From Candidatus Shapirobacteria bacterium (lineage in GTDB: Bacteria > Patescibacteriota > Microgenomatia > UBA12405): 64,000 bases of DNA. Positions 5,702 through 60,003 of this stretch are shown here, piece after piece (position 1 is the first letter of the stretch; each line of letters begins with the position of its first letter). The notes below the pieces were generated by a model. That model saw only the letters and a list, made by a program, of their open reading frames with translations. It had not been told where the DNA came from and did not search any database. The DNA lies in contig JBAZYN010000001.1 of NCBI GenBank assembly GCA_041659325.1, positions 3,098 through 67,097 of the forward strand, given 5' to 3'. The translations under genes and the position numbers were made by a program.

Positions 5702-6385
5702 TTAGGGGTGGATTTTAACTCTAAATACCCTGTAGAAATACAGGGTTTTTTCTATCACCATGGTCGCTAGAAGCCAGGCAAATCCGGCCACAAAACCCGC
5801 CGCCACATCCGACGGATAGTGAACCCCCAGGTACACCCGGCTCAATCCGACCAGAGACACAATAGAGATTGCTATTGCCAGATATTTCGACAACACATAC
5901 TGATTTTTTGTGAAACGATAGGAAAAATATGCCAAAGTAAAATAAAAAACAAACGAATTCATGGCGTGGCCTGACGGAAAGCTTGTTGTTTTTTCTTCCA
6001 CCAGGGGAGACAAGTTGGGTCGGGGCCGGTCAATAAAATGTTTCAGGGTCAAGTTTAGTCCGGCACAAACCAACAGACTCAGCCCGAACAATAGAGCCGG
6101 CCTGGTATGTTTTTTATACATTAGATATCCTATGGTCAAAACAGCTATTGTCCCTAACCAATAACCGGACCCCAAAAAGGTAACAAATTTCATCACCTCC
6201 GTCAAAATCGGGTTTCGGAAACTATAAACAAACCAGGACATTGTTTCGTCAATATAAATCATGTTTGCCCTAAAGATCCGTTCCGAAAATTCATAAAAAA
6301 CTCTGATGGATGCCAAAGAAATCACCAAGCCCGCTCCAATCTCCCCCAAAATTACCAAAATGACCCTAATGTTTTTCCACATCAC
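5702..6385 (-). CDS. PAP2 family phosphatase (phosphatidic acid or undecaprenyl-diphosphate phosphatase-like)
   Basis: KHFIDRPRP, PSGHA and SRVYLGVHYPSDV form the three PAP2 signature motifs; multiple TM helices. Confidence 0.8.
   Translation of the reverse strand: MMWKNIRVILVILGEIGAGLVISLASIRVFYEFSERIFRANMIYIDETMSWFVYSFRNPILTEVMKFVTFLGSGYWLGTIAVLTIGYLMYKKHTRPALLFGLSLLVCAGLNLTLKHFIDRPRPNLSPLVEEKTTSFPSGHAMNSFVFYFTLAYFSYRFTKNQYVLSKYLAIAISIVSLVGLSRVYLGVHYPSDVAAGFVAGFAWLLATMVIEKTLYFYRVFRVKIHP
5728..5752 (+). terminator. Rho-independent terminator downstream of the helicase gene (CCCTGTA-GAAA-TACAGGG then T6); lies within the last codons of the convergent PAP2 gene
   Basis: Perfect 7-bp stem, 4-nt loop and T-run read directly from the sequence. 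Confidence 0.5.
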
Positions 6386-12998: not shown

Positions 12999-15900
12999 AT
13001 GAAAAAGTCGACCAAGCTTTTATTTGTAATAATTTGTATTATTTTATTTCTATCCGGTTCACTGTTTCTTAGGCTAAAAATCAAAAAACCCGTCAACACA
13101 AGTGTTGTGCCAATGGATATCGAGTTTGCTGCCTCAAAAAAAAGTTCATCAGGGGTCGACCCCCAATCACCAATTATTATCTCCAGTAGTCAAACTCTTG
13201 ATGCCCAAGCCATTTCTCAAGCCATAAAAATTACCCCGGAAGCCGATTACTCGGTCAAAAAAATAAACGATAACTCAGCCGAGCTTAACTTTAGAAAACC
13301 TCTCGAAAAATCAACCGTCTATCAAATTAGTCTAAATCGCTCAAGATGGGCTTTTCAAATCGAGTCTCCCCTTGCCGTTACCGGTTCTTTGCCCGGCAAC
13401 AAATCTACCGATGTCAACCCCAATACCTCAATAGAGTTTTATTTGAATAATCCTGATTTTCTTACATCAGCCAACCAATATTTTAATATTCAGCCATCCG
13501 TTTCCGGCCGTTTTGAAAAACATCAAAATTCTCTCGTGTTCATCCCCTCATCTCTTACCGCCGACACCTTATACACCGTTACTCTTAAAAAGGGATTTCC
13601 TCTGGCCGACAATTCCCAAAAATTACCCGATGATTTTTCTTTTCAATTCGAAACAGGCAATACCGACAAAACTCAAGTTTCGCGTTTTGATTTTCAAAAA
13701 CCCATCTTCGAGTCATCTCCCGACAAACCTCCTATCGCCATTATCAGCAATTGGGATCCGCCCTCTCAAAAAGTAAAAGCCAAGCTTTATCAATTCAACA
13801 GTACTGATTTCCAAGACTGTCTGACCCAAAAGATTGCCCTTCCTTCCTGGGCTCGTCATAGCCGATATTATCGTTGCCAAACTACCGGGAAATCAATTTC
13901 TGAGTTTGAGTTGGACACAAAATCCCCCACAGAATATGGCTCGAAATACCTGGAACTTCCTTCAAAATTACCCATCGGGTATTATGCCCTTGAAGTCATC
14001 AACCCCGACACCTCAATCAGCCAAACATTAATTGAAGTATCACCCCTTTCATGGTTTTATTGGATAGGAGTCGATGATTCTTTGTTTTGGGTAAACGATT
14101 TGGTTTCTCAAAAACCACTTGCCGACGTTAAACTCTTTCTCGGCTCAAAAGAGCTTGGTGCTTCAAATACCGAAGGATTAGTCAAGCTCACTACCCACAG
14201 CGATTTAAAATCCCGTCAAAACCAAATACTAACCATAAAAACCGCCCTCTTTACCGCCTATAATCTCATTGAATATCAGAATACCTATGGCGGCTATTTT
14301 GCTTCTTCCGAAGCCGAAATAGAAAAAAACAAATATTGGTCGTATCTGTACACCGATAGAGCGATATATCTTCCTTCCGACAAGATTAGTTTTTGGGGCA
14401 TCGTAAAATCACGAGCCATCCAATCCCAAGAGCCAATTACCGTCGAGCTCTCCCGGAATTCTTACTCTTATTGGCGAGAGGAAAATTCTTCGGACAATAT
14501 AATCAAAAAAATAGAAATCACCCCATCCAATCATGGCACATTTCAGGGGGTCTTTGATTTCTCCAACCTAAACCCGGGATATTACAGTCTCATTGCCAAA
14601 AAAGGGGACACCTTTATCACCCAACAAGGTTTTTCGGTTGAAACTTTTAAAAAACCCATCTTTCGGATTACAGCTAAACCTCAAAAACTTGTCATCTGGG
14701 CCGGTCAGCCAAACAAAGTTGATCTTTCGGTAAAATTTTATGACGGCACTCCTGTTTCCGAGACCCCAATAGTTTGGAATATGTACGATAGCACCGGAAA
14801 TAAAAAAGGTGAAATTATAACCGACAAGGCCGGAAATGCTAGCCTTGAGATCCCAACCGTTTACGACTCAACAAAAAATTATTGGCCGCAAAATGTCTCG
14901 GTCAACTTCCGACCCAAGGGTATGCAGGAAGCCGACATCGACACCTACACTTCCTTCTTTGTGTTTGGGCCGGAATATAATTTGACCGTAGATTCGGAAA
15001 CCATAGACAGTCAATCCCGGATCACTGTCACCGTAAGAAAAAATGACCTAAGTTTATTAGAGAAATCTCCCTGGAAGAATGAAGGAAACCCGGTGGCAAA
15101 CCAGTCCGTTTCTGTCAAAACCGAACGGGTCTGGTACGACAAAGTAGAAACCGGAGACTACTACGATCCTATCAACAAAATCACCTCAAAAAGATATCGG
15201 TACGATAAAAAAACCGAAGGTGTGTCCAGCCAAAACTTAATCACCGATAGCAACGGCAAGGTCACCTATTCTCAGCCGGTTATCTCCGGTCAGCAATACG
15301 AAATTTTCGTCACTGCAATTGACTCCCAAAATCGGCCTACCAAATCCACTATCTATATTTCCGGCTCCAACTCGTCATCATTCGCTGATTTTTATGCCAA
15401 AACTTCAAAAGACAAGTATTCTCTCGGAGATCAAATAGAAGTATCTCTTAATTACGGCAATGATCCGGCTCCGACTTCCGAACCCAACAAATATCTCATT
15501 TTCTTTGTCAGAAATGGAAAAATTTATAACACGACCGTTTCCGAAAATAATAAACTTAGTTTTCAATTCGGAAACGATTACGTTCCAAATATAATTTTGA
15601 AAAGCGTTTGGTTTAGTGGTTCTACCTACAAGATCAGCAACAATGCCCGTAGCTTCTTGACAAACGGCCTCAACCTCACCTTCGACACCTCATCAAAGGA
15701 GCTGAATATTGATGCAAAAACCGACAAGTCAAAATATCAACCAGGGGAAGAAGCCCTGGTTGAATTATCTGTTAAAAATAACGCCAATCAGCCTCAACCC
15801 AATACCAAAGTCCTTCTTTCGGTGGTAGATGAGTCACTCAGTGATATCGGCGGAATCTCTTCTTCCGGCATCCTATCAGAATTATATTCTTCACTCGGTG

Positions 15901-17831
15901 AAGGTCGATTGGTAGATTATTACTCAAATCAAGTACCCGAAAATGGTGGCGGGGCCGAAGGCGGTGGCGGCGGTGGAGAGAGCCGTTCAGTATTCAAAAA
16001 TACTGTTGCTTTTACCGAACTCACCACCGATGCCACGGGGGTCGCTAAGTACAAACTAAAATTTCCCGACAATATTACCTCCTGGCGGGCTACCATGCTA
16101 GCCGTCGGGAATGATCTCTCGGCCGGAGATGGTCAGTTACTTATTCCTGTTACCAAGCCGCTTTTTGTCGACATAGTGACCAACGACGAATTTATCATCA
16201 CCGATAAACCAAAAATTACTGCCATCAGCTACGGCGAGGGCCTCGACACTGATTCGCAAATTAGTTATTCTCTTAACTCTCCCAGCTTAGGGATAAACCT
16301 CAAAAATATCTCCCAAAAAGCTTTTCTTCCGCTCGAATTTGATTTAGGTCAATTAGTCCCCGGGAAGCACCGCCTCGAGGTCAAGACTTCCTCCGGCAGC
16401 TTCAACGATATCCTGATTAAAACCATAGATGTGGTCAAAAGCCGAAACCTATTGCCAAAACAGGAAATAATAAGTTTAGACAAACAGTACAAGCCAATCT
16501 TTACCAGCCAACGCCCGGTGTACTTTACCTTTATCGACAAAGGCCTGAACTCCCTCTACTCAAAATTAAAACAATTTACCGGCCTCAACTCCTATGGTCT
16601 CAATGAGAGAGTAGACCGCCTAGTTGCAGAAAATATTTCTGTCGGACTTTTATCCCAATATTTTTCCGAAGATACGGTGGAAACCGAAGAAAGCTTTAGC
16701 CGGTATATCCACGAAAAAGGTGTCAGTCTCATGCCCAACTCCGATGCCGATCTGGTATTGACAGCCAAGTTCGCCGCCGCCAATCTTCCGCTCGTCAGTA
16801 AATCTCAGCTTTCCTCCGCCCTCTCGACCTACTTTCGTCAAGAAACTTCCATTGAGCGGGCCAGTGCCGCTCTTTGGGGTCTTTCGGAAACCGGCAAATC
16901 TCTTCTTACCTCCATCGATATCTTATCGAAAGAAAAAAATACTCCCCGGGGCCAAATCTATCTCGGGCTAGCTTTAGCTTCCCAGGGTGATCAAATTTCC
17001 GCCGGGAAGATCCTGAATGAAATTATTGCCAAATACGGCGTAAAACAGGATCCATATCTTTTCATCAAAGTCGACAACAATGAGCAAAATACCCTCGAAA
17101 ATACAGCTTTGGCCATGATCTTATCGGCCAAAGTCGGCTCCATTGAACTGCTTGATAAACTGTGGTCATATCTTGATATTGCCAAATCAGAAGAACAACT
17201 TTATGTCTTGGAAAAAGCCATTACCATAAAATCGTCCATCGCCTCATACCCATCATCACTCTCCGAGTTTGAATATCAGTTATTGGGTCAAAAGTTTACT
17301 AAAAAATTATCCGACGATAAAATCCATACAGTCGTGGTTCCTCAAAACGAATTATCCACTTTCTCTGCCACCCCTATTTCCGGTTCAGTCGATATTATTG
17401 TTCGCTGGTGGGAAGATTTTGACTTATCTCAAGTTACGGTTAACCAAAATATTTCTCTCGATGTTTCTACCGCTCCCATATCCAAAATATCCGGTTCTGA
17501 ATACATGGAGTTTATCGTTACCCCCAAAATTTCCAAAAACACCACCAACGAATCATATTTAGTTTCCGTCAATCTCCCCTCCGGGCTCAGACTAATCGAC
17601 AATCCCTACTTCTATAAAACCCTGAGCGGGAAAAATGAATTTTTCAGTTTCCCATCATATATTGAAAATAACCGGCTCATTTTCCGATCAAATTTTACCT
17701 ATCCTATTCGCTTTTTAGCCCGACCAATCAACAAAGGTCAATTTTCTTTCGAGCCGTCATTTCTTTATTCGTCAAGCACTATTAATCAGCTAAATGTCTC
17801 GAAACCTCATCCTGATATCACTATTAATTAG
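12999..17831 (+). CDS. Giant (1610 aa) secreted alpha-2-macroglobulin-family-like protein; MG/A2M_N domains, no visible CxEQ thioester
   Basis: N-terminal signal anchor; KTDKSKYQPGEEALVELSV...VLLSVVDESL resembles A2M_N; FTELTTDATGVAKYKLKFPDNITSWRATMLAV resembles A2M_N_2; size matches bacterial A2M. Confidence 0.5.
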   Translation: MKKSTKLLFVIICIILFLSGSLFLRLKIKKPVNTSVVPMDIEFAASKKSSSGVDPQSPIIISSSQTLDAQAISQAIKITPEADYSVKKINDNSAELNFRKPLEKSTVYQISLNRSRWAFQIESPLAVTGSLPGNKSTDVNPNTSIEFYLNNPDFLTSANQYFNIQPSVSGRFEKHQNSLVFIPSSLTADTLYTVTLKKGFPLADNSQKLPDDFSFQFETGNTDKTQVSRFDFQKPIFESSPDKPPIAIISNWDPPSQKVKAKLYQFNSTDFQDCLTQKIALPSWARHSRYYRCQTTGKSISEFELDTKSPTEYGSKYLELPSKLPIGYYALEVINPDTSISQTLIEVSPLSWFYWIGVDDSLFWVNDLVSQKPLADVKLFLGSKELGASNTEGLVKLTTHSDLKSRQNQILTIKTALFTAYNLIEYQNTYGGYFASSEAEIEKNKYWSYLYTDRAIYLPSDKISFWGIVKSRAIQSQEPITVELSRNSYSYWREENSSDNIIKKIEITPSNHGTFQGVFDFSNLNPGYYSLIAKKGDTFITQQGFSVETFKKPIFRITAKPQKLVIWAGQPNKVDLSVKFYDGTPVSETPIVWNMYDSTGNKKGEIITDKAGNASLEIPTVYDSTKNYWPQNVSVNFRPKGMQEADIDTYTSFFVFGPEYNLTVDSETIDSQSRITVTVRKNDLSLLEKSPWKNEGNPVANQSVSVKTERVWYDKVETGDYYDPINKITSKRYRYDKKTEGVSSQNLITDSNGKVTYSQPVISGQQYEIFVTAIDSQNRPTKSTIYISGSNSSSFADFYAKTSKDKYSLGDQIEVSLNYGNDPAPTSEPNKYLIFFVRNGKIYNTTVSENNKLSFQFGNDYVPNIILKSVWFSGSTYKISNNARSFLTNGLNLTFDTSSKELNIDAKTDKSKYQPGEEALVELSVKNNANQPQPNTKVLLSVVDESLSDIGGISSSGILSELYSSLGEGRLVDYYSNQVPENGGGAEGGGGGGESRSVFKNTVAFTELTTDATGVAKYKLKFPDNITSWRATMLAVGNDLSAGDGQLLIPVTKPLFVDIVTNDEFIITDKPKITAISYGEGLDTDSQISYSLNSPSLGINLKNISQKAFLPLEFDLGQLVPGKHRLEVKTSSGSFNDILIKTIDVVKSRNLLPKQEIISLDKQYKPIFTSQRPVYFTFIDKGLNSLYSKLKQFTGLNSYGLNERVDRLVAENISVGLLSQYFSEDTVETEESFSRYIHEKGVSLMPNSDADLVLTAKFAAANLPLVSKSQLSSALSTYFRQETSIERASAALWGLSETGKSLLTSIDILSKEKNTPRGQIYLGLALASQGDQISAGKILNEIIAKYGVKQDPYLFIKVDNNEQNTLENTALAMILSAKVGSIELLDKLWSYLDIAKSEEQLYVLEKAITIKSSIASYPSSLSEFEYQLLGQKFTKKLSDDKIHTVVVPQNELSTFSATPISGSVDIIVRWWEDFDLSQVTVNQNISLDVSTAPISKISGSEYMEFIVTPKISKNTTNESYLVSVNLPSGLRLIDNPYFYKTLSGKNEFFSFPSYIENNRLIFRSNFTYPIRFLARPINKGQFSFEPSFLYSSSTINQLNVSKPHPDITIN

Positions 17832-19056: not shown

Positions 19057-19485
19057 ATGAAAAAGAATATTCCTTGCCTGATTTTTGTTACACTGGCGAC
19101 ATTGATTTTTTTTACACCTGCCTCTGCTCAGGCAGCAAAAAAAAGGGTATTTAAATCAGGATCGTCTGGCTCTAATTTGTCTACCGGTACACCCGCCGTC
19201 TATCTCAGCCTCCGCCGCGACCGTCTGGCCCTAAACATGTCCTTCGTCAACCTCAAGGCCACCAAATCGGCCACCTACGAGTTAACTTATCAAGGTAGTG
19301 GCAATGATCAGGGGGTATTTGGGTCTGTAAAACCAACGGAGTCGGGCCAGCGCACCCTATATTTTGGTACCTGCTCGCATGCCGTTTGTAACCCCCACAA
19401 AAATATCCAAAATATGAGATTGTCAATAAAATATACCCTAAATAATGGTAAAACCATTTCCAAAAGGTATAAAGTAAAAGTCTAA
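19057..19485 (+). CDS. Secreted hypothetical protein
   Basis: Signal peptide ...FFTPASAQA followed by AKK. Confidence 0.45.
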   Translation: MKKNIPCLIFVTLATLIFFTPASAQAAKKRVFKSGSSGSNLSTGTPAVYLSLRRDRLALNMSFVNLKATKSATYELTYQGSGNDQGVFGSVKPTESGQRTLYFGTCSHAVCNPHKNIQNMRLSIKYTLNNGKTISKRYKVKV

Positions 19486-19781
19486 GACCGAACTTTTTTT
19501 ATCTTAATCCCATACATTATTATCCCTTTCCCGTCGGTATCTGCGATTCGTCTAAATACACACTTTACTTTATCTCCGATTTCCAAAAGCTCGTTATCAA
19601 CACCCATTAATTCCCGGCATTCGTCCCCAAATCTAACCAGAGAAAAGGTATACGGGGCCATATTTTGCAACATCAAGGGCGGCACTCGGATAGTCGTCGT
19701 CGCCACCACCTCTCCCTCTTTACCTATTATTTTTGCCCACCCCTTGTTGGCTCTCCAATATTCTGCCGGATATCCTTTCAC
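19482..19781 (-). CDS. DUF35-like OB-fold protein (partner of the archaeal thiolase/HMG-CoA synthase complex), lacking the Zn-ribbon
   Basis: VPPLMLQNMAPYTFSLVRFGDECRELMGVDNELLEIGDKVKCVF resembles the DUF35 OB-fold; 4-nt overlap with the thiolase gene. Confidence 0.55.
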   Translation of the reverse strand: MKGYPAEYWRANKGWAKIIGKEGEVVATTTIRVPPLMLQNMAPYTFSLVRFGDECRELMGVDNELLEIGDKVKCVFRRIADTDGKGIIMYGIKIKKVRS

Positions 19782-20893
19782 TTTTTACCTCCCAATATAT
19801 GAACTACTGCCGTTGCGCCGCTGCCACCCACGTTCTGTGCCAGTCCGGTTTTTATTTTTTTATCTAAAATCAGCTGCGATAAATAAGCAATTTGTTTTAT
19901 GCCGGTTGCCCCCACCGGATGTCCGTTGGATTTCAACCCTCCCGAAGGATTAATTACAACTTTTCCTCCATATGTAGTTTTCCCCTCAATCGTTGCTTTC
20001 CCCCCCATCCCTTTTTTAAAAAACCCCAGGTCCTCGATTGCCAAAATTTCCGCAATAGAAAAACAATCATGAATTTCTGCTGCCCCAATATCGTCTGGCC
20101 CTACGCCAGCCATTTTGTATGCGATCTTCGCCGCTTTTACCCCGGCCTCGATGGTGGTCAGTGAATTTCTTTTTGCCAAGGACAAGCTGTCCATTCCTTG
20201 TCCAAACCCAATAATTTGCGGGCAATTTAATCCATATTTAGTCGTCAAAATCACCGCGGCCGCCCCGTCCGAAATAGGGGAGCAATCAAACAATCTAAGC
20301 GGGGCAGCAATGATTTCACTTTCATTCACTTCCGCTATAGTTATTTCTTTGTGGAATTGTGCCAGTGGGTTCAAAAGTCCATGTTTATGGTTTTTAACAC
20401 TAACCGCCGACAGCTCATCCCTTGTCGTTCCGAATTCCTTCATGTGTTTCTGAGCCATCAGTGCATATAACCCCGGAAACGTGCTTCCGTATTCCATCTC
20501 CACGTCCGCCGCCCCCACCAAACCTTCTGTCGCCGTCGGGTTTGATACATCAGTCATCTTTTCTGCTCCTACCACCATTACAGTTTTATATCTGCCCGAC
20601 AATAGAGCCAATTCTGCCGCAATCATTGCCAAACCGCCCGAAGCACAGGCCCCCTCAATTCTCATTGCCGGTGGCTGATTTTTTAGTATCTGGCTTGCCA
20701 TTGCTCCCAAATGAAGTTGCCCGTCAAATATTCCGCCGGCCATATTTGAAACAAAAATTGCTTCAACTTCTTTATCATCCAAATTAGAATTTTTTATCAC
20801 TCCCTGTACAGCTTCAGTCAGCAGATCTTTTAAACTCTTCTCCCATAATTCCCCGAATTTAGTAATGTATGATCCGGCCACAAATGTCTTCAT
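19778..20893 (-). CDS. Thiolase (acetyl-CoA C-acetyltransferase, archaeal / SCP-x-like type)
   Basis: GACASGG active-site Cys, CSPISDGAAA, HDCF, NPSGGL...GHPVGATG. Confidence 0.85.
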   Translation of the reverse strand: MKTFVAGSYITKFGELWEKSLKDLLTEAVQGVIKNSNLDDKEVEAIFVSNMAGGIFDGQLHLGAMASQILKNQPPAMRIEGACASGGLAMIAAELALLSGRYKTVMVVGAEKMTDVSNPTATEGLVGAADVEMEYGSTFPGLYALMAQKHMKEFGTTRDELSAVSVKNHKHGLLNPLAQFHKEITIAEVNESEIIAAPLRLFDCSPISDGAAAVILTTKYGLNCPQIIGFGQGMDSLSLAKRNSLTTIEAGVKAAKIAYKMAGVGPDDIGAAEIHDCFSIAEILAIEDLGFFKKGMGGKATIEGKTTYGGKVVINPSGGLKSNGHPVGATGIKQIAYLSQLILDKKIKTGLAQNVGGSGATAVVHILGGKK

Positions 20894-21951
20894 TTTTCCG
20901 TCCTTTTTCTGTATTCACTATAACTTATGAAACGATTACCAATCTGGCTTGATAGAAAATTGTTCCAGTCAGCCTTCCTCTCCTGCATGTTCTCAGCACA
21001 GTTAAAAGCAAAACAATCAGATCCGGCCCCCGATCCGTATGAAGCCATAAAAATTTTCTCTCCCCCCTTCGCCTGGTCAAGTACATTAGTCAGCGCCATC
21101 AAGCTAGCGGCTGCATAGGTATTGCCAATCGTCCGGACGACCAGGCTATGTTTAATTTGGTCTTCCGAGCAGCCCATTGTTTTTGCCACCGCTTTTGGGA
21201 ATTTCCCGTTTGGTGTATGAAAAATACAATAGTCAAAATCACTGATTTTCATATCCAGGTCAGACAAAAGTTTCCTACCGGCAGTCAGGATATGGTTAAA
21301 ATATGCCGGTTCCCCGGAAAATCTGCCTGCATGTTCAGGAAATTCCTGCCTCGGCCGTCTCCAGAAATCAGGCGTATCCGTTGCCACCGATACCGTGCCA
21401 ACCATTTCTGCCAGTAAATTTTCCCTGCCGACAAAAAATGCAGCTCCGCCTGCTCCAGCAGTATATTCCAACACGTCACCAGGCCGCGACTGAGCTGTAT
21501 CTACCCCTATTGCCAGGCCAAAATCTGCCATCTTTGACTTTACATAGGCAAAACACGCCTGCAAACTTTGGGTTCCTGCCTTACAGGCAAACTGCATATC
21601 TGCCATGGCCATATATTTCTGCAACCCCAGGGCCTGAGCCACAATTCCCGAAGTTGGTTTTACCGCATAAGGATGGCTCTCGCTCCCCACAAATATTACC
21701 CCCATTTTTTTCTCCAAAAACTCTCTTTCTGTCAGCCTTAAATATGCCTGATATGCCGCCTCTACGGCAATAGTTGTACTGTCTTCGTCTATTCCTGGTA
21801 CAGTTTTCTGTTCCACTCCCAAAACCGGCCCCATATCCTTACCGTTGTGAGCCTGGGCAATTTCACCGCTTTTGATTACTGATTCCGGAATATACGCGCC
21901 ATAAGACACAATTCCGACACTTTTGTCCATGTAAGTATTATGTCGACTCAC
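20890..21951 (-). CDS. Hydroxymethylglutaryl-CoA synthase, archaeal-type (about 350 aa)
   Basis: GSESHPYAVKP, ACKAGT (catalytic Cys), IFHTPNGKFP, YGSGAGSD. Confidence 0.85.
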   Translation of the reverse strand: MSRHNTYMDKSVGIVSYGAYIPESVIKSGEIAQAHNGKDMGPVLGVEQKTVPGIDEDSTTIAVEAAYQAYLRLTEREFLEKKMGVIFVGSESHPYAVKPTSGIVAQALGLQKYMAMADMQFACKAGTQSLQACFAYVKSKMADFGLAIGVDTAQSRPGDVLEYTAGAGGAAFFVGRENLLAEMVGTVSVATDTPDFWRRPRQEFPEHAGRFSGEPAYFNHILTAGRKLLSDLDMKISDFDYCIFHTPNGKFPKAVAKTMGCSEDQIKHSLVVRTIGNTYAAASLMALTNVLDQAKGGEKIFMASYGSGAGSDCFAFNCAENMQERKADWNNFLSSQIGNRFISYSEYRKRTEK

Positions 21952-21995
21952 TCTCCAAAATCATTCTCCTAGTGTTAAAATTATAATTCAACTCT

Positions 21996-22457
21996 ATGAT
22001 CAACTTAAAAGATGCCATTCATTGGTATAGAAAACTACCAGAGAAAAAGCTCTATCTCGAATCTATCAGCGCTTTACTGACTATCCCGGTCTTGGTTACA
22101 GTCATCCTCTCAAATGTCATCAATCTTAAAAAAACCGCCCTATCAACTGCTACACCCATTACCTCTTCGCCGACGGTTATCCCCACTCATGTGGATACTG
22201 TATCTCCGACACTAGCTCCGGTTGTTACCGTCCAAATCGTTTATGTTACTCCTACCGGCGTTTCGACGATAGTTCCAACTAGCACAATAGTTCCTACCCC
22301 CACCGCCACCTTCACCCCCACCCACACCTCGACACCCTCTCCCAGCCCTACCACGATCCTCAATACTCCTACTCCTAGTTCAACTTCTACCCCGACTCCC
22401 ACAGCGGCATTAATACCATCGGACACTCCGACCGTTCAACCAAGCCCGACTATTTGA
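21996..22457 (+). CDS. Membrane-anchored Thr/Pro/Val-rich low-complexity protein
   Basis: TM helix, then PTPTATFTPTHTSTPSPSPT-type low complexity. Confidence 0.45.
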   Translation: MINLKDAIHWYRKLPEKKLYLESISALLTIPVLVTVILSNVINLKKTALSTATPITSSPTVIPTHVDTVSPTLAPVVTVQIVYVTPTGVSTIVPTSTIVPTPTATFTPTHTSTPSPSPTTILNTPTPSSTSTPTPTAALIPSDTPTVQPSPTI

Positions 22458-31488: not shown

Positions 31489-31966
31489 GCGAAAATTTTT
31501 AGTAAAACAATTACCCGATTTATCCAGTATTCAGGTCGTAAATTATGAACGATATTATCTATTTGTTGGCAATGGTATTGAACTTAGAATACAGAGAAAG
31601 AATCATAAATATGAATTAGAGCGTAAAGTCACTACTGGTGATTTGACTCGCACTGGTAATTCTTGTCCATTGTCTCCTGAAGAGTTTAATTTGCTAAAAC
31701 AATTATCAAGTAAATCAATTATTCGAGATGCTTATCGACTAAGTGAGTCTCCTAATGTATCAATAAAGATTTATCATGGAGATTGTGAGGGTCTAGTTCG
31801 GGCTGAATTTGAATTTGAGTCAGAGATCGAGGCAAAATCATTTATCCCACCTGAATGGTGTGGTGACGAAGTAACAAACACGGCTTTGGGTCGTGACTCT
31901 CGACTCTTGGCATTATCTAGGCAAGATTTATTAAAAGAACTAAAAGTAGTTGAGTCGAAGGTATGA
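31475..31966 (+). CDS. CYTH-domain protein (triphosphate tunnel metalloenzyme / class IV adenylyl cyclase-like)
   Basis: N-terminal EIERKFLV signature; acidic patches EFEFESE. Confidence 0.7.
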   Translation: MEEIERKFLVKQLPDLSSIQVVNYERYYLFVGNGIELRIQRKNHKYELERKVTTGDLTRTGNSCPLSPEEFNLLKQLSSKSIIRDAYRLSESPNVSIKIYHGDCEGLVRAEFEFESEIEAKSFIPPEWCGDEVTNTALGRDSRLLALSRQDLLKELKVVESKV

Positions 31967-32616
31967 AACTACTCTTAACTTCTGCCGGATTATCAAATCT
32001 CTCAATAGTCAAAGCCATTGAAAGGTTGTTGGGGAAATCTGCCAAAGGGGTTAAGCTGGCCTTTATCCCCACTGCGGCCAACGTTGAGCCTGGTGATAAA
32101 AGCTGGATGATTGAAGATTTGAACAATTTCCAAAAAACTGGTTTTGAGGTAGATATTGTTGATATTTCAGCTCTACCGAAAGAGATATGGTTGCCAAGAA
32201 TTGAGAAAGTCGATGTATTGGTCTTTAGCGGTGGCAATACTTTTCACCTGATGTACTGGCTAAGAAAATCTGGCTTAAACCAACTGCTCCCAGAACTACT
32301 TAAAAGTAAAGTTTATGTAGGGATTAGTGCAGGCAGTATGGTTGTTTCAAAAAGTATTTTTCTAACCTCTGACAAACCAATTTTTGGTGAAGACAGATTG
32401 GGTGTGGCTGATGACAGAGGTCTGGGTCTTGTCAATTTTTACGTTCGCCCTCATTATAATTCCCCACTTTTTCCAAAGGCAAAAGAAAATGTGATTGCAA
32501 AGTCGGCCAAAACAGTCACCGAGCCAGTTTATGCTCTGGATGATAACGGTGCCATTGAGGTTGCGGACGATAAAATCGAAGTCGTTTCAGAAGGGGAATA
32601 TAAGATATTTAATTAA
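31963..32616 (+). CDS. Peptidase S51 (dipeptidase E / cyanophycinase-like), copy 1
   Basis: FSGGNTF, GISAGS (Ser nucleophile), RPHY (His). Confidence 0.7.
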   Translation: MKLLLTSAGLSNLSIVKAIERLLGKSAKGVKLAFIPTAANVEPGDKSWMIEDLNNFQKTGFEVDIVDISALPKEIWLPRIEKVDVLVFSGGNTFHLMYWLRKSGLNQLLPELLKSKVYVGISAGSMVVSKSIFLTSDKPIFGEDRLGVADDRGLGLVNFYVRPHYNSPLFPKAKENVIAKSAKTVTEPVYALDDNGAIEVADDKIEVVSEGEYKIFN

Positions 32617-33419
32617 TTTTTACTTCTTCTCTCAATCTCTTTGTTCGCCATTTCAATTCTCACATGATACGGTGTACTTCGATATAAAACTGGCCAAAGC
32701 GGGCTGTAATCATCTAGAGGTGGAAAGTGAGCATTTCTGAACTTTTCAGTCACCGTAATCATCCCTTTGGGGTCGGTTATATGACTTACTGCAAATCTGT
32801 CAGCCTCGTACTCACTTCGCATTGCATACTGAATATTAAAAAGTCCCAAAGCAATCCCAATTATAGGAATAATATACAAAGGTAGCTTGCGAACAATAAA
32901 ACAAGAAATTATAAAAAAGGTTATAAAAAATATCAGTTCTTTAATAGTATGGTGTAATTGATAGTGGCCAGTTTCATGAAGAACTACATACTCCTTTTCA
33001 CTGTCGGTAAAATCTTGATTAAGTTGGCTTGATAGCATCATGAATGGTTTATTGGGAATTCCAATCATTACAGCATAAGGTCGAGGGGAGGCAATAATTC
33101 TAAAAGAACTTAGCAATAATCCAGTCTTCGATTGGATTAGGGTGATAAGAGGCGACTCCTTGATTTCTGTCAGTAACTTTTGTTTTTGTCCAATGCCCGT
33201 CAAATATAGGTTTATACCCATCCACTGAGTTACATATCCCATGACCAAAAATAAAAGAAGATAGCGCACCAATGGCTTAAAGCGAGTAAGCATATCAAAA
33301 TTATATCCCCATCCGTCAGTTTGAGGTAGAATACCCCTGAACCTTCGATACCACGAAGTAAAAAATATTTTAAAGAAGTGAAAAAATAATGGATAGATTT
33401 GCGGAGAAGTATTCGACAA
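32613..33419 (-). CDS. Membrane Zn-metallopeptidase, HExxH type (M48/M56-like)
   Basis: HETGHY plus downstream EYEAD third ligand; several TM helices. Confidence 0.5.
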   Translation of the reverse strand: MSNTSPQIYPLFFHFFKIFFTSWYRRFRGILPQTDGWGYNFDMLTRFKPLVRYLLLFLVMGYVTQWMGINLYLTGIGQKQKLLTEIKESPLITLIQSKTGLLLSSFRIIASPRPYAVMIGIPNKPFMMLSSQLNQDFTDSEKEYVVLHETGHYQLHHTIKELIFFITFFIISCFIVRKLPLYIIPIIGIALGLFNIQYAMRSEYEADRFAVSHITDPKGMITVTEKFRNAHFPPLDDYSPLWPVLYRSTPYHVRIEMANKEIERRSKN

Positions 33420-33988
33420 AATCGTCCCGCCTTTTTAATTACAATTATTCATCTCCGGGAATTTATTTCATCACCATTTGTACTCTACGCCATAACAATT
33501 TTTTTGGAAAAATTATTGACAATAAAATCAAATTTACCAAAATGGGAATAATTGCCAAAGATGAATTGCTAAAAACAATTATAATTCGTGATAATTTAAC
33601 AATTAACCCGTGGGTGATAATGCCCAACCATATTCATTTACTAATCACACTTCCGAACACCCATGTAGAGACGCCCCGCGGGGCGTCTCTACATAAAAAT
33701 CAAATATTTCCGCCAATTATCCCATCGCATAAAAACCACCCGGAATATTTTTCCAGACTAAATGTCAAGTCAAACCAGGAAATCCCAAAATTAATCAATC
33801 AATTTAAATCAAGAGTTACTATAATCTGTAGAGAAAACAAGTTATTTTTTGCCTGGCAACCACGGTATTACGATGAAATTGTGAAAGATCAGGGAAGATT
33901 CAAAAAAATTAAAACTTATATAATTAATAACCCCTTAAATTGGCAAAAAGATAAATATTATTTTAATAATTTAAAAAATAATCTATGA
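33389..33988 (+). mobile_element. IS200/IS605-family Y1 transposase-like (RAYT-like) gene carrying an in-frame palindromic insert
   Basis: GIYFITICT, HUH motif IMPNHIHLLI, catalytic Tyr region FAWQPRYYD, NPLNW; about 200 aa, RAYT-sized. Confidence 0.65.
33663..33694. repeat. Perfect 32-bp GC-rich palindrome ATGTAGAGACGCCCCG|CGGGGCGTCTCTACAT inside the transposase ORF
   Basis: Left half is the exact reverse complement of the right half; encodes HVETPRGASLH in frame. Confidence 0.95.
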
Positions 33989-34127
33989 AAGAAAGAATAA
34001 TATTTCAAAATTCCCGCTTTAAAATATCATTTGCTTGGTATGATCTTTGGATCGGGCTATTTGTCGATACAAATAAAAAACGGATTTATTTTTGTCCAAT
34101 TCCGACGTTATTATTTACAATTAATTT

Positions 34128-34733
34128 GTGAAGCTCTTTTTAACTTCTACCGGTCTCTCCCCTCAAGTTGCTCCATTCTTTCTAAAGTTAATCTCAAAAC
34201 CACCAAAACAATTCAAAGTTGCTTTTATTCCAACCGCTGCCGATCCTTACGATGATAAATGGTTTATGGAAAAAGATATCCAAACCCTTTCTGATTTTGG
34301 TTTTCCGGTTAACATTGTTGACCTTAAGGCTGATATCACTTTTATCCGCTCTCAGCTTGAAAAAAGTCAAATTATTTTTGTTGGTGGGGGAAATACTTTT
34401 TATTTACTTCACTGGATTCGTCAATCAGGAGTCGATAAATATCTTTCTCAACTTCTGGAAGACCGTTACTATATCGGTGCCAGTGCCGGTAGTGTTTTAG
34501 CCGGTCCCGATATTGCCATATCCGGCTGGGATCCCTCTTGGGATACCAACGACGTTAAGTTGCAAGACACTACCGGTCTCAATCTTGTCCCCTTCGCTGT
34601 TTCTCCCCACTATACCGAAAAACATAAAGAGATCTTAGCTATCAAAAGTCGGGAAGTTAATTACAAAGTTATTCCGATTACTGATACTCAAGCTGTTTAT
34701 TTTAACAATGACAAATACATAATTATTAATTAA
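34128..34733 (+). CDS. Peptidase S51 (dipeptidase E-like), copy 2, diverged paralogue
   Basis: FVGGGNTF, GASAGS, SPHY; same domain order as the gene at 31963. Confidence 0.7.
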   Translation: MKLFLTSTGLSPQVAPFFLKLISKPPKQFKVAFIPTAADPYDDKWFMEKDIQTLSDFGFPVNIVDLKADITFIRSQLEKSQIIFVGGGNTFYLLHWIRQSGVDKYLSQLLEDRYYIGASAGSVLAGPDIAISGWDPSWDTNDVKLQDTTGLNLVPFAVSPHYTEKHKEILAIKSREVNYKVIPITDTQAVYFNNDKYIIIN

Positions 34734-46060: not shown

Positions 46061-47740
46061 ATGCCATCGCAAGTCTTTACCATAAAAATTGCCGCTCCGG
46101 CCGGGCTTGGGGTCAAGTCCGGCGGCCAGCTTCTATCAAAAGCGTTGGTCGCTCATGGATTTAACATCAAAGACTACAATGAATATCCGTCGTTGGTTCG
46201 GGGTGGCCACAATACTTATCAGGTCAGCGCTTGTATTGACAAAATCTATGCTCCCCATTTTTCCGTTGACCTCTTTTTCTCCGTCCAAAGCGGCCATTGG
46301 CAGCCACATGTAGACGAATTTCACGATGATTCCTTGATCTTTGGGGACGAACCATTTGAGAATACTTCCACCAAAGGTCATTATATTAATCTCCCCATTA
46401 AAGAACTATCTACTTCGGTAGGAAACAATTTGGTGGGCAATACTATTTGTTTGGGAGTGGCGGCTTTTCTTTTAGGTCTCAGTACAGAGATTGCAAAAAA
46501 TAGTATTACGAGTCAATACGGCAAAAACGCGGAGATAAATCATCAGGCTTTTAATGTCGGTTACACTTACGCCAAAAACAATTACTCCCAATTTGTTCAA
46601 AAATTAAATTTACCAAAGGTAGATAATAAAAATGGTCTAATCTGCGACGGCAACGAATCACTCGGATGGGGTTTTCTACAATCAGGCGGGAATTTTTATG
46701 CTGCTTATCCCATGACTCCGGCCACAGGGATTTTGCATTTTCTGGCCGAAAAACAAAAAGATTATAAGCTGACTGTACTTCATCCCGAAGATGAGATTGC
46801 CGTTGCCAATATTGGAGCCGGTGCCGCCTTTGCCGGTGCCCGTGTTGCAGTTGGAACATCGGGTGGGGGATTCGTCCTTATGGATGAAGCCATCAGTTTT
46901 TGCGGCATTGCGGAAATTGGCATGGTTTATTATTTGGTTTCCCGCCCGGGCCCGGCTACTGGTTTGCCCACCTGGACTGCTCAGGGCGATTTGCTCCATG
47001 CCATTTATGCCGGTCATGGCGAATTTCCAAAAATTGTTTTAGCCCCGGGAAGCCATCAGGAATGTTTTGATTTTTCTGCCCTGGCTTTGAACCTTGCCGC
47101 TCAACTACAAACGCCGATTATCGTCCTAAGCGACAAATATCTTGGTGAGTCCTGTAGCAATGTCGCTGATTTTTCAAAATCAAAGGTAGCTATAGAAGAG
47201 GGTTCTGTCGTCAAAGCTCCGGACAATAACTTTCGCCGATATTCCCTAAAAACCCAAAGTGGAGTTTCCCCATTAACCCTTCCGGGTACGGTCAACGGTG
47301 AATTTCTAAGCAATAGCTATGAGCACGACGAAAGAGGTTTTTCGACAGAATTACCTGAAATGTCCAAGCAAATGATGGAAAAAAGAATGACAAAACTAAA
47401 AACTGCTCTGGATCTTCTTCCCGGCCCCATGCTTTATGGCAACACAAACGCCAAGAAACTAATAATAAGCTGGGGGTCAACCACACAGCCGGTTCTTGAG
47501 GCTTTAAAGAACTTACCCGATTATGCCTTTTTACAAATCCGCAGTCTTTGGCCGATTGGCCAAGAAGTCTCAAATATTGTCGAAAAATATCAATCTGTCG
47601 CCGTCATTGAAGCCAACCAAACCGGTCAGTTAACCACTCTTTTAAAATCTCAATTTAATTTTCATCCCACCTCTCAAATATTAAAATTTAACGGCCGCCC
47701 CTTTTACCCCGAAGAGATAGCCAAACTTTTAACTTTATGA
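46061..47740 (+). CDS. 2-oxoacid:ferredoxin oxidoreductase alpha subunit (KorA/PorA-like with fused gamma domain)
   Basis: Gamma-domain-like N-terminus (IAAPAGLGVKSGGQ); alpha domain GTSGGGFVLMDEA. Confidence 0.75.
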   Translation: MPSQVFTIKIAAPAGLGVKSGGQLLSKALVAHGFNIKDYNEYPSLVRGGHNTYQVSACIDKIYAPHFSVDLFFSVQSGHWQPHVDEFHDDSLIFGDEPFENTSTKGHYINLPIKELSTSVGNNLVGNTICLGVAAFLLGLSTEIAKNSITSQYGKNAEINHQAFNVGYTYAKNNYSQFVQKLNLPKVDNKNGLICDGNESLGWGFLQSGGNFYAAYPMTPATGILHFLAEKQKDYKLTVLHPEDEIAVANIGAGAAFAGARVAVGTSGGGFVLMDEAISFCGIAEIGMVYYLVSRPGPATGLPTWTAQGDLLHAIYAGHGEFPKIVLAPGSHQECFDFSALALNLAAQLQTPIIVLSDKYLGESCSNVADFSKSKVAIEEGSVVKAPDNNFRRYSLKTQSGVSPLTLPGTVNGEFLSNSYEHDERGFSTELPEMSKQMMEKRMTKLKTALDLLPGPMLYGNTNAKKLIISWGSTTQPVLEALKNLPDYAFLQIRSLWPIGQEVSNIVEKYQSVAVIEANQTGQLTTLLKSQFNFHPTSQILKFNGRPFYPEEIAKLLTL

Positions 47741-48342
47741 ACTTTAAAACAAACATAATCCCCACCTGGTGTCCGGGGTGCAGCAACTACTTACTTTCTT
47801 CGGGAATTCAGCAAACTCTAACAAAGCTTAATGTTTCGACCTCTGACTTGGTTATCGCCTATGATATCGGCTGTGCCGGTAATATGGCTGATTTTATTAA
47901 TTCTTTTGGTGCCCACACCCTTCATGGCCGGTGCATCCCTTTCGCAATCGGTGCAAAAGTTGCCAATCCGTCACTGACCGTTTGTGCGGTTGGGGGTGAC
48001 GGAGGAATATATGGTGAGGGGTTAAATCATTTAATCGCTGCTGCCCGGATGAACATAGACATTACCGTTTTTGTCGCCAATAACCATCTTTATTCATTAA
48101 CCACCGGCCAGACCAGCCCCACTACCGCCAAGGGGACCAAAACTAAATCAACTCCACTTGGTGCTCCCGGCGTTCCACTTGACCCGGTTAAATTAGTCAA
48201 GGCAGTCAACCCGGAAGTTTTTGCCGAAACTGTTGATTCAAAAGATGTTGGTAAACTAAACGAATTAATCGAATCAGCCATGAAGTTCAGGGGGTTCTCC
48301 CTTCTTGATACTGCCCAATTTTGCCTTGCCTTCGGTAAATAG
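47737..48342 (+). CDS. 2-oxoacid:ferredoxin oxidoreductase beta subunit (TPP-binding), C-terminally truncated (201 aa)
   Basis: WCPGCSN, GGDGG...NN TPP motif; ends at FSLLDTAQFCLAFGK, where homologues continue about 60-80 aa further. Confidence 0.7.
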   Translation: MNFKTNIIPTWCPGCSNYLLSSGIQQTLTKLNVSTSDLVIAYDIGCAGNMADFINSFGAHTLHGRCIPFAIGAKVANPSLTVCAVGGDGGIYGEGLNHLIAAARMNIDITVFVANNHLYSLTTGQTSPTTAKGTKTKSTPLGAPGVPLDPVKLVKAVNPEVFAETVDSKDVGKLNELIESAMKFRGFSLLDTAQFCLAFGK

Positions 48343-58392: not shown

Positions 58393-60003
58393 ATGACCAT
58401 CAGAGAGCGTGTTGCTATCTTTTCTATCAAGAAACAAAACAGCATCCTTTCGGCGTCTCTGGTTCTCGGGATAACTTTTGCCATCTCGGCCCTCCTTGGC
58501 TTTTTGAGGAGTCGTTTCCTTTACGCCCACTTTTTCAAGTGCTGTGTGCTTGAGCTGGATGTATACAATGCTGCCTTCCGCCTACCCGATCTGGTTTTCA
58601 AGCTTTTGGTAACCGGGGCTCTGTCTGCCTCATTTATTCCCGTATTTTCAAGTTATTTACACAAAGACAAGGAAACTGCTGATAAAATCGGGTCAACTGT
58701 CATTAACCTACTTTTCATCGTTTTTTTATTTTGCTCCATTTCTATCTTTATCTTTGCCCGTCCACTAACGAGAATTATTGCCAGCGGATTCTCCGCCGAT
58801 CAGCTAGCTTTAATGGTCGATCTTACACGGATACTTCTTGTTGCCCAGGTGTTTTTTCTTATCAGTAACTTCGTCACGGCCATCCTGCAAGTTAACCAAA
58901 TATTTATCATCCCAGCCCTCTCCCCGATTACCTACAATATCTTCATCATTCTTGGTATTTTCACTCTCGCTCCCACCTTTGGTATATATGGAGTAGTTTA
59001 TGGCGTAGTTATAGGATCTTTTTTCCACCTTGCTATTCAAATCCCTGTGCTAAGAAAAATCGGTTTTAATTACACCCGCCTGATAAATATTCGGCTGAAG
59101 GGAGTCAAAGAAGTATTTAGGCTTATGGTTCCCCGGAGCCTCTCTCTTGGCCTTGGGGAAATTGAAAACACGGTAACTTTATTTTTTGCTTCTAGCCTGG
59201 CCGCCGGATCAATTTCTCTTCTAAATCTATCACTCCAGTTAATGTATCTTCCCAGTAGAATTTTTGGCACCACCATCGGGCAGGCATCACTTCCCATTCT
59301 TTCAAAAAATATTGCCCGAAACGAAATGGATATTTTTAGACAAACCGTCAAAAAAACTTTATTGCAAAGTGTTTTTATTGCTCTGCCTATCACCACCCTC
59401 ATTCTGATCCAAAGAGTTTCTATTGTCAGGATTGCTTTTGGCAGTCGAGAATTTCCTTGGACGGCAACGCTGCTAACCGCAAGGATTTTGGCTTTTTTGA
59501 CCCCGGCCATTGTCTGTCAGGCTGTTAGCCAGATTTTAATTAGGTCGTTTTATGCCATGCACAACACCAAAATCCCCCTTTATGTTTCTTTTTTCTCGCT
59601 TGTATTAAACATTTCTTCAAGTTACTACCTAATTAACTTCACTAGCCTCGGCGTAATCGGTCTGGCTATCAGCGCTTCTCTGAGTAATATTGTCCAATTT
59701 GTTGGTCTCTTCTGGCTTTTTATCAAAAAAGTTGATGGCTTTTATTGGGACGATGTCTTTAAGAGATTCGGGAAAATGGTTTTCGCTTCTCTTTTGACCG
59801 GGTTAATTTCATGGGGGTTGGTCAAGTTATTAGATGTCTTCGTCCTGGATACAAGTAAAACAACAAATCTGGTTATGCTTTTTTCCGTCTCTACATTTTT
59901 TGGAATTTTCGTGTATTTTGTCATCTCCCATTGGCTTATGGTCCAAGAATGCCGTGATTTTGAAAAATATTTCATAAAACTGAAACAATTAGTTTTAAAG
60001 TAA
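58393..60003 (+). CDS. murJ: Lipid II flippase MurJ (MviN family)
   Basis: 14 TM helices; N-terminal pattern SASLVLGITFAISALLGFLRSRFLYAHF; about 536 aa. Confidence 0.85.
   Translation: MTIRERVAIFSIKKQNSILSASLVLGITFAISALLGFLRSRFLYAHFFKCCVLELDVYNAAFRLPDLVFKLLVTGALSASFIPVFSSYLHKDKETADKIGSTVINLLFIVFLFCSISIFIFARPLTRIIASGFSADQLALMVDLTRILLVAQVFFLISNFVTAILQVNQIFIIPALSPITYNIFIILGIFTLAPTFGIYGVVYGVVIGSFFHLAIQIPVLRKIGFNYTRLINIRLKGVKEVFRLMVPRSLSLGLGEIENTVTLFFASSLAAGSISLLNLSLQLMYLPSRIFGTTIGQASLPILSKNIARNEMDIFRQTVKKTLLQSVFIALPITTLILIQRVSIVRIAFGSREFPWTATLLTARILAFLTPAIVCQAVSQILIRSFYAMHNTKIPLYVSFFSLVLNISSSYYLINFTSLGVIGLAISASLSNIVQFVGLFWLFIKKVDGFYWDDVFKRFGKMVFASLLTGLISWGLVKLLDVFVLDTSKTTNLVMLFSVSTFFGIFVYFVISHWLMVQECRDFEKYFIKLKQLVLK

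Follow-up and report, generated by a model that had tools for sequence, protein, structure and literature searches.

How does a bacterium come to carry the archaeal-type enzymes that open the mevalonate (MVA) pathway, and can these enzymes work together when the subunit expected to hold them in place has lost its zinc ribbon? This question is raised by a 64,000-nucleotide stretch of contig JBAZYN010000001.1, referred to here as the window, from a metagenome-assembled genome (MAG) of Candidatus Shapirobacteria (Patescibacteria group, Microgenomates group, Candidatus Shapironibacteriota), a member of the candidate phyla radiation (CPR). Its minus strand encodes a 3-hydroxy-3-methylglutaryl-CoA (HMG-CoA) synthase (HMGS), an acetoacetyl-CoA thiolase (ACAT) and a DUF35 protein of only 99 aa. 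A thiolase/HMGS/DUF35 complex from Methanothermococcus thermolithotrophicus was reportedly described by Vögeli et al. in 2018 (PDB 6ESQ, 6ET9). The reading that we favor, and consider likely, is that the three genes form a functional operon whose products would assemble into an archaeal-type complex of this kind, with channeling and delivery of HMG-CoA into the MVA pathway, and that the module was inherited within the CPR. It draws on the identities of the three proteins, their catalytic motifs, the OB fold of the DUF35 protein, the deletion within that protein and its distribution, purifying selection, and the linkage of the same genes to MVA clusters in relatives.

A coupled three-gene operon

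The gene order is HMGS-thiolase-DUF35, matching archaeal and bacterial loci. The HMGS gene (20890..21951, minus strand) has a maximum open reading frame (ORF) of 353 aa, which begins with a GTG at 21951; the gene for the SCP2/archaeal-type ACAT (19778..20893, minus strand) encodes 371 aa from an ATG, and that for the short-form DUF35 subunit (19482..19781, minus strand) encodes 99 aa from a GTG. Both junctions are 4-nt overlaps, reading ATGA where the HMGS stop meets the thiolase start and GTGA where the thiolase stop meets the DUF35 start. Shine-Dalgarno-like sites, AAGGA and GGGAGG, precede the thiolase and DUF35 starts, and no terminator-like sites beyond shuffle level were found between the three genes. 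This is a classic layout for a single transcript with translational coupling, and the three genes are predicted to be expressed in this way. A preliminary description of the locus had already proposed three minus-strand genes with 4-nt overlaps and hence one transcript; the ORF list and a reading of the junctions confirm the former, and the coupled overlaps with their Shine-Dalgarno-like sites support the latter.

For HMGS, a start at the ATG at 21930, for a protein of 346 aa, is more probable than one at the GTG at 21951: the ORF in the relative L001 extends no further upstream than this ATG, a gene caller on another assembly chose 346 aa, and homology to 6ESQ begins only at residue 10. Upstream of the operon, a short divergent intergenic region (21952..21995, minus strand) contains a TATAAT hexamer at 21985-21980 and AGGAGA at 21970-21965. 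It is the putative promoter and leader, as read from the sequence; a consensus promoter scan found no full −35/−10 pair there and nothing above shuffle expectation. At the other end of the operon, 99 aa is the maximum length of the DUF35 ORF, and therefore there is no hidden N-terminal extension; both such an extension and a split zinc-ribbon gene nearby were rejected from the ORF list and a domain scan. The same ORF was left uncalled by the assembly's gene caller on Logan contig L066 (2113-2412), which is identical to the window across the operon. Annotations of CPR genomes may be missing other short-form DUF35 genes as well.

Catalytic residues of the synthase and the thiolase

The 353-aa protein is assigned as an archaeal-type HMG-CoA synthase. 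It scores 438.9 bits against NF003274 (cut-off 244) and 389.4 bits against the archaeal-type equivalog TIGR00748 (cut-off 353.35), and it falls far short of the bacterial and eukaryotic HMGS models. A FabH/KAS-III identity was rejected, the FabH model giving 69.2 bits against a cut-off of 292.1. The best PDB match is 6esq_I (E 1.9e-98), with which the GSES, FACKAGT, FHxPNG and GNTY motifs all align. The catalytic tetrad, aligned with that chain, is intact: E91, C123 (the cysteine of FACKAGT), H245 and N277 in 353-aa numbering, or E84, C116, H238 and N270 if the protein has 346 aa. The last two then carry the same numbers as in the archaeal enzyme, whose tetrad E82/C114/H238/N270 is essential by experiment (PMC12960953).

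The 371-aa protein belongs to the archaeal/SCP2-type thiolases. It matches Pfam Thiolase_N (91.6 bits) and Thiolase_C_1 (109 bits), exceeds the cut-off of the subfamily model NF004720 (426.3 against 420 bits) and has 6esq_A as its best PDB match (E 6.5e-86). All three motifs of the family are present: the nucleophile Cys83 in GACASG (CxS, here C83-A-S), H275-D-C-F (HDxF) and G-H325-P (GHx). According to a 2026 study of bacterial HMGS/ACAT/DUF35 triads (PMC12960953), the HDxF histidine of ACAT is essential for HMG-CoA formation, as is the HMGS tetrad.

The thiolases compared here differ in two further respects. A loop of ~16 residues before GLxQNVGG is missing from the thiolases of the window (at residues ~340-345), L001 and L006; the loop (consensus GE..AGKRQVxxAK) is kept in all other lineages, other CPR included. 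Separately, the thiolase-like subunit beside HMGS lacks the nucleophile cysteine in some Anaerolineae (L013, L017, L018, L024) and in Sulfolobales/Desulfurococcales (L049, L036), CAS being replaced by SAS, GAS, ESS or DNS. The Anaerolineae subunits are also without the GHx histidine and have HDS or HDA in place of HDCF. These cysteine-less subunits look catalytically dead from their motifs, although the adjoining HMGS is intact.

A DUF35 subunit without its zinc ribbon

The 99-aa protein passes the model for the DUF35 OB domain, PF01796 (30.6 bits, cut-off 27.1), which is its only Pfam match; no Pfam zinc-ribbon domain was found in it. It has exactly two cysteines, C55 and C74, and no CxxC. 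Residues 21-95 align with residues 50-126 of its best PDB match, 6esq_E (E 2.1e-5). The protein consists of an N-terminal helix with a conserved P..YWR followed by a five-strand OB barrel. An AlphaFold2 model built from a 113-sequence alignment recovers this helix and the five strands with a pLDDT of 89.0 and a pTM of 0.78; it replaced a run on a shallow 8-sequence alignment that had reached a pLDDT of 55. Foldseek against the PDB places 6esq_F, 6esq_G and 6esq_E at the top (6esq_F: E 4e-6, TM 0.70, rmsd 2.4 Å), and MucC, BbsA and ChsH2-DUF35 come next.

How did the zinc ribbon disappear? The ORFs that follow the thiolase were aligned from 24 loci. The DUF35s of archaea, Chloroflexota, Aminicenantes, Ignavibacteria and Polyangiaceae are 129-159 aa long and all contain CxxC-x10-CxxC, and the CPR proteins are all 96-102 aa, with a single internal gap of ~32 residues that exactly spans the zinc ribbon. 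What remains still aligns: the P..(Y/H)WR helix motif, the OB domain and the C-terminal G-x-I-x-YG-x-KF. In CtShy-CtSal the DUF35 contacts its thiolase-fold partner mainly through the N-terminal helix and the OB barrel (PMC12329534), and these are precisely the parts kept by the CPR short form.

The short form is a family and not an isolated oddity. When 1.84 billion cluster representatives were searched exhaustively with HMMER, 253 proteins matched at E <= 0.001. Among the 156 DUF35 sequences examined, 130 are at most 112 aa long, lack a zinc motif and mostly align end to end, and more than 100 representatives of 94-108 aa without the motif align with the short DUF35 over their whole length. 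Counted as clusters at 50% identity, the zinc-less form has more than 100 of them. Of the 130 short proteins, 107 have one cysteine or none, and there is no conserved alternative metal site. R10 and Y90 are invariant in the 113-sequence alignment, and conservation is 90% or higher at G23, Y44, G69, V72, R77 and K93. With a dN/dS of 0.046 against L001, the short DUF35 is, by this measure, under strong purifying selection. In the sequence databases it shares a 90% cluster with the NCBI protein MFA5827753.1, annotated "OB-fold domain-containing protein". A repeated match in the exhaustive search, the 815-aa protein P0089, was set aside as a surface protein with Ig-like repeats and not a DUF35.

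When the zinc character is placed on an enlarged HMGS tree, 27 of 27 tips of the CPR clade are zinc-less, and outside this clade all DUF35s have the zinc form, with one possible exception, L117. That locus has the order thiolase-DUF35-HMGS and a 138-aa DUF35 without paired CxxC. Another locus, L071 (metagenome contig Ga0155153_142), has the CPR-like order HMGR-HMGS-ACAT-DUF35, where HMGR is HMG-CoA reductase, together with a zinc-bearing DUF35 of 135 aa; in the HMGS tree it has a basal position in the CPR clade, and it could represent a Dependentiae-like or early CPR state. In several Anaerolineaceae/Brevefilum loci (L020-L023, L026, L028, L029, L037), no DUF35 ORF was detected after the thiolase, and other Anaerolineae keep a zinc-bearing DUF35 of 132-159 aa. 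All structurally characterized DUF35 domains bind zinc via C4 or C3H1 sites (PMC12329534), and no literature combining DUF35 with any CPR term was found in the searchable library. The zinc-less DUF35 is a real variant of a known scaffold protein, present throughout the lineage and apparently not described before.

These results bear on most of what the preliminary description had proposed. It had named the proteins as an HMGS, an archaeal/SCP-x-type thiolase and a DUF35 protein, and the profile scores above cut-offs agree; the ACKAGT active site that it read in the synthase is there within FACKAGT, at Cys123. Its link to the archaeal channeling complex gains from the finding that all three best PDB matches are to 6ESQ/6ET9. 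Its minimal, two-cysteine DUF35 without a zinc ribbon also holds: C55 and C74 are the only cysteines, ~32 residues are deleted and the OB fold is kept. The points on which it had staked its case come out in its favor, the OB fold being predicted to be present and the 353-aa protein being an HMGS and not a FabH.

Inheritance within the CPR

The gene content of the window is bacterial and includes an OmpR-type two-component pair, a MacB/HlyD efflux set, a sortase, GreA and MurJ, among other genes typical of bacteria. The closest genomic relatives of its HMGS are in CPR MAGs (59% identity in HK-STAS-PATE-15, 57% in Woesebacteria, 47% in Gottesmanbacteria). Neighbor-joining trees of HMGS place the CPR sequences in a clade apart from archaea, Chloroflexota and a small Aminicenantes/Ignavibacteria group. 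The GC content and the GC content at third codon positions (GC3) of the three genes lie within 0.2-1.4 standard deviations of the window's 68 ORFs, and a compositional signal of horizontal transfer was rejected on this ground. The operon and its neighbors, which include an HD-domain protein, a PD-(D/E)XK nuclease, a Memo-like protein, a 1610-aa alpha-2-macroglobulin-like protein and QueA, are syntenic in L001. The three proteins are 76-89% identical between the window and L001 at dS above 1, with a dN/dS of 0.045-0.047 for each gene.

This agrees with what has been published on the lineage. According to Hoshino and Gaucher 2018 (PMC6107057), MVA genes are present in most Microgenomates, acetoacetyl-CoA thiolase (AACT) and HMGS are archaeal-type and form a distinct CPR clade, the AACT and HMGS trees are congruent with the CPR species tree, the genes for later steps have exactly the same distribution as those for early steps, and presence in the CPR ancestor is inferred. 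Archaeal-type entry enzymes in Microgenomates are thus already known, and the operon is ordinary for its lineage. The published trait, the CPR clade, the ordinary composition and the synteny together leave a recent transfer unsupported; the module therefore appears native, inherited within the CPR and not recently acquired. The preliminary description had called it the most "horizontally flavoured" module of the window, and that part does not survive, archaeal-type AACT and HMGS being the norm in Microgenomates according to PMC6107057. The HMGS phylogeny that it had called for separates a CPR clade from both archaea and Chloroflexota, which counts against archaeal transfer.

Three of the genomes in the comparison (L005, L006, L010) are titled Pseudomonadales or Gammaproteobacteria, yet the MVA loci in them are of the CPR type and cluster with those of Woesebacteria and Gottesmanbacteria. 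Their taxonomy is probably mislabeled; the isolate name of L005 contains "PATE".

Linkage to the mevalonate pathway in relatives

In relatives, the triad is tied directly to genes of the MVA pathway. All nine of the other CPR loci that were located by a route other than HMGR (eight genome loci through HMGS and one through the short DUF35) have HMGR directly upstream of HMGS. Downstream of the short DUF35, both L011 and L005 have two GHMP kinases and a diphosphomevalonate decarboxylase; the next gene encodes undecaprenyl-diphosphate synthase in L011 and a NUDIX protein in L005. The order HMGR-HMGS-ACAT-short DUF35 recurs in eleven further metagenome loci, these found through HMGR. On the contigs at hand, the triad in the window and in its close relatives L001 and L002 is separated from the rest of the MVA cluster.

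Other genes of the window offer some context. A two-subunit pyruvate/2-oxoacid:ferredoxin oxidoreductase (POR/POR_N and TPP-binding; 46061-48342) is a possible source of acetyl-CoA. A MurJ lipid II flippase (58393-60003) and a PAP2-family phosphatase (5702-6385) imply use of a polyprenyl-phosphate carrier. All of these genes are context for the pathway and not proof of it.

Mechanism and alternative explanations

If the favored reading is correct, the thiolase would condense two acetyl-CoA to acetoacetyl-CoA, an endergonic step, and acetoacetyl-CoA would be handed to HMGS without release, with the short DUF35 holding HMGS alongside the thiolase. HMGS would then add a third acetyl-CoA to give HMG-CoA, an exergonic reaction that would pull the unfavorable thiolase step. 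The HMG-CoA would enter an MVA pathway encoded elsewhere in the genome; in CPR, this pathway would chiefly supply isopentenyl diphosphate for the C55 undecaprenyl-phosphate carrier of the cell wall. The short DUF35 found across the CPR lost its zinc ribbon through a clean internal deletion, with the helix and the OB barrel retained. The three proteins are read as a complex because all three have their best PDB matches in 6ESQ/6ET9, and as HMG-CoA-forming because the HMGS tetrad and the ACAT HDxF histidine are all present. By homology, the assembly would have a CoA-binding site shared between the thiolase and HMGS at their interface. What we infer by analogy with the known complexes and pathways is that the three proteins assemble, that they channel their intermediate, that HMG-CoA in this genome enters the MVA pathway and that the end use lies in the cell wall.

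Several observations weigh against this reading. The thiolase falls below the cut-off of the strict equivalog NF053570 (397.2 against 600 bits). No HMGR, GHMP kinase, decarboxylase, IDI or UppS was found in the window by tblastn (best E 0.12), and the same pathway genes were not found by tblastn on the 20-27-kb contigs of the relatives L001 and L002; the other CPR loci examined have pathway genes adjacent. An HMGR on the 573,898-bp parent contig was not among the best 120 matches of two protein searches, one with a profile of eight CPR HMGRs and one with the single L005 HMGR sequence, nor among the best 80 loci of a metagenome scan, and exact look-up of ten NCBI-sourced matches did not reveal one either. 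All trees were built by neighbor joining only. Lastly, scaffolding and channeling are extrapolated to a zinc-less DUF35 from complexes in which the DUF35 binds zinc.

The missing pathway genes invite the idea of an orphan or re-routed module, in which the triad was split from the MVA cluster, the downstream pathway is absent and the enzymes serve another acyl-CoA purpose: making or cleaving acetoacetyl-CoA or HMG-CoA for the balance of acetyl-CoA and acetoacetate, or making a different acyl-CoA product. The window, L001 and L002 are indeed the only CPR loci examined without HMGR upstream and GHMP kinases downstream, the HMGR searches of the parent contig point the same way, and a Pseudomonas HMGS/ACAT/DUF35 triad without pathway neighbors cleaves acetoacetyl-CoA only (PMC12960953). 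That triad, however, has lost the E-C-H-N tetrad, which is intact in the window, and strong purifying selection acts on all three genes. The HMGR searches covered one contig and the best-ranked matches, which does not show absence from a genome that may have further contigs, and early and late MVA genes co-occur in CPR according to PMC6107057. MurJ and PAP2 also imply a need for polyprenyl phosphate, though scavenging from a host is conceivable. On balance we regard an orphan module as unlikely. We give a similarly small chance to a bolder combination, in which the zinc ribbon is dispensable for the thiolase-HMGS channeling complex, making the CPR form a natural minimal scaffold, and the Shapirobacteria triad stands alone and serves a non-mevalonate use.

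Could the complex instead have been repurposed in the manner of PhlABC or MucABC, as a Friedel-Crafts C-acyltransferase for a secondary metabolite that forms no HMG-CoA? This kind, or an intermediate one, accounts for many bacterial HMGS/ACAT/DUF35 triads (PMC12960953), the PDB matches of the HMGS and the thiolase include PhlA- and PhlC-type chains, and MucC is among the structural matches of the DUF35 model. Such complexes lack the HMGS tetrad and the ACAT HDxF histidine, and the window has both. The 6ESQ chains also score far higher (E 1.9e-98 against 2e-44 for PhlA, 6.5e-86 against 3.3e-18 for PhlC), and no polyketide synthase or nonribosomal peptide synthetase genes or domains were found in the 64-kb window, which makes a repurposed complex very improbable. 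A recent horizontal acquisition from an archaeon is just as hard to credit: the HMGS passes an "archaeal" equivalog model, DPANN archaea are among its closest non-CPR matches (47-49% identity) and the GC content of the 20-22-kb bin (0.457) is the second highest in the window, but the closest relatives are CPR genomes at 54-59% identity and the CPR sequences are monophyletic in the neighbor-joining trees. The GC3 z-scores are only 0.2-0.95, the flanking synteny with L001 persists at dS above 1, the zinc-less DUF35 is common to all CPR loci and to no archaeal locus, and PMC6107057 infers presence in the CPR ancestor. Finally, the 99-aa ORF might be a decaying remnant, with the thiolase and HMGS working without a scaffold. 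A whole domain is missing from the protein, one gene caller left the ORF uncalled on the Logan contig and the shallow-alignment model was poor (pLDDT 55). A remnant would hardly show a dN/dS of 0.046, nor would more than 100 diverged clusters keep its length together with R10, Y90 and six further positions at 90% conservation or more; the deep-alignment model reaches a pLDDT of 89, and the tight coupling between DUF35 start and thiolase stop holds throughout. Decay is therefore extremely unlikely.

Other features of the window

Divergent from the operon, 21996-22457 encodes a 153-aa protein with one hydrophobic segment and a long Pro/Thr/Ser-rich tail; it has no Pfam match and is absent at the corresponding position of L001. 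The 1610-aa alpha-2-macroglobulin-like protein (12999-17831; A2M, bait-region, MG2 and Big_5 domains) has a signal-anchor N-terminus and is found at the same length and position in L001. At 31963-34733, a fragment of an IS200-like Y1 transposase (33389-33988) and an M48 peptidase gene lie between Peptidase_S51 paralogues (31963-32616 and 34128-34733), in a region whose GC content of 0.36 is the window minimum.

Implications

What would follow if the favored reading holds? The operon agrees with the published inference that archaeal-type entry enzymes serve the synthesis of isoprenoid precursors in Microgenomates. A conserved DUF35 family without a zinc ribbon, with catalytically intact partners, defines a minimal unit that may suffice for assembly, and a metal-free scaffold of 99 aa would be a handle for studying or engineering thiolase-HMGS channeling. 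The short form also provides a sequence marker, all CPR-clade loci being zinc-less and the others seen zinc-bearing, with L117 as a possible exception and L071 at the base of the clade. If the downstream pathway were truly missing, the case would be relevant to the supply of the cell-wall lipid carrier in reduced symbionts. Enzymologists may find the zinc-less DUF35 moderately interesting.

Comparison with known systems

DUF35 proteins with an OB fold bind a thiolase-fold partner in several systems, including BbsAB (7PXP/7PYT), ChsH2(DUF35)-Ltp2 (6OK1), Shy(DUF35)-Sal (9MYR) and the Sulfolobus ketothiolase/DUF35 pair Saci_1121/1120, and complexes of the BbsAB/ChsH2/Shy kind rank 6-11 among the Foldseek matches of the window's DUF35. 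Unlike it, they all bind zinc via C4 or C3H1 sites, and their partners and chemistry differ; in Sal, the DUF35 zinc finger shapes the substrate cleft (PMC12329534). PhlABC of Pseudomonas, MucABC of Streptococcus and an "intermediate" of P. fluorescens share a homologous architecture of HMGS-like, ACAT-like and DUF35 subunits. All three have lost E-C-H-N, Phl and Muc have lost HDxF as well, and no HMG-CoA is made (PMC12960953). They keep a zinc-ribbon DUF35, whereas in the window the catalytic residues are intact and the ribbon is gone.

The MVA genes of Microgenomates come from the same lineage as the window and include, according to PMC6107057, an archaeal-type AACT and HMGS in a CPR clade; the accessible part of that paper does not mention a DUF35 subunit or its zinc-less form. 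CPR relatives show the full cluster HMGR-HMGS-ACAT-DUF35-GHMP-GHMP-MVD-UppS/NUDIX, and the triad of the window differs in being detached from HMGR and all later genes.

The closest counterpart is the complex of M. thermolithotrophicus, which supplies the best PDB match for every subunit, has the same gene order and shares the HMGS tetrad and the CxS, HDxF and GHx motifs of ACAT. The window departs from it in a thiolase that is ~20 residues shorter and without a C-terminal loop, in a DUF35 of 99 aa instead of 130 aa without the four-cysteine zinc ribbon, and in its host, a CPR bacterium.

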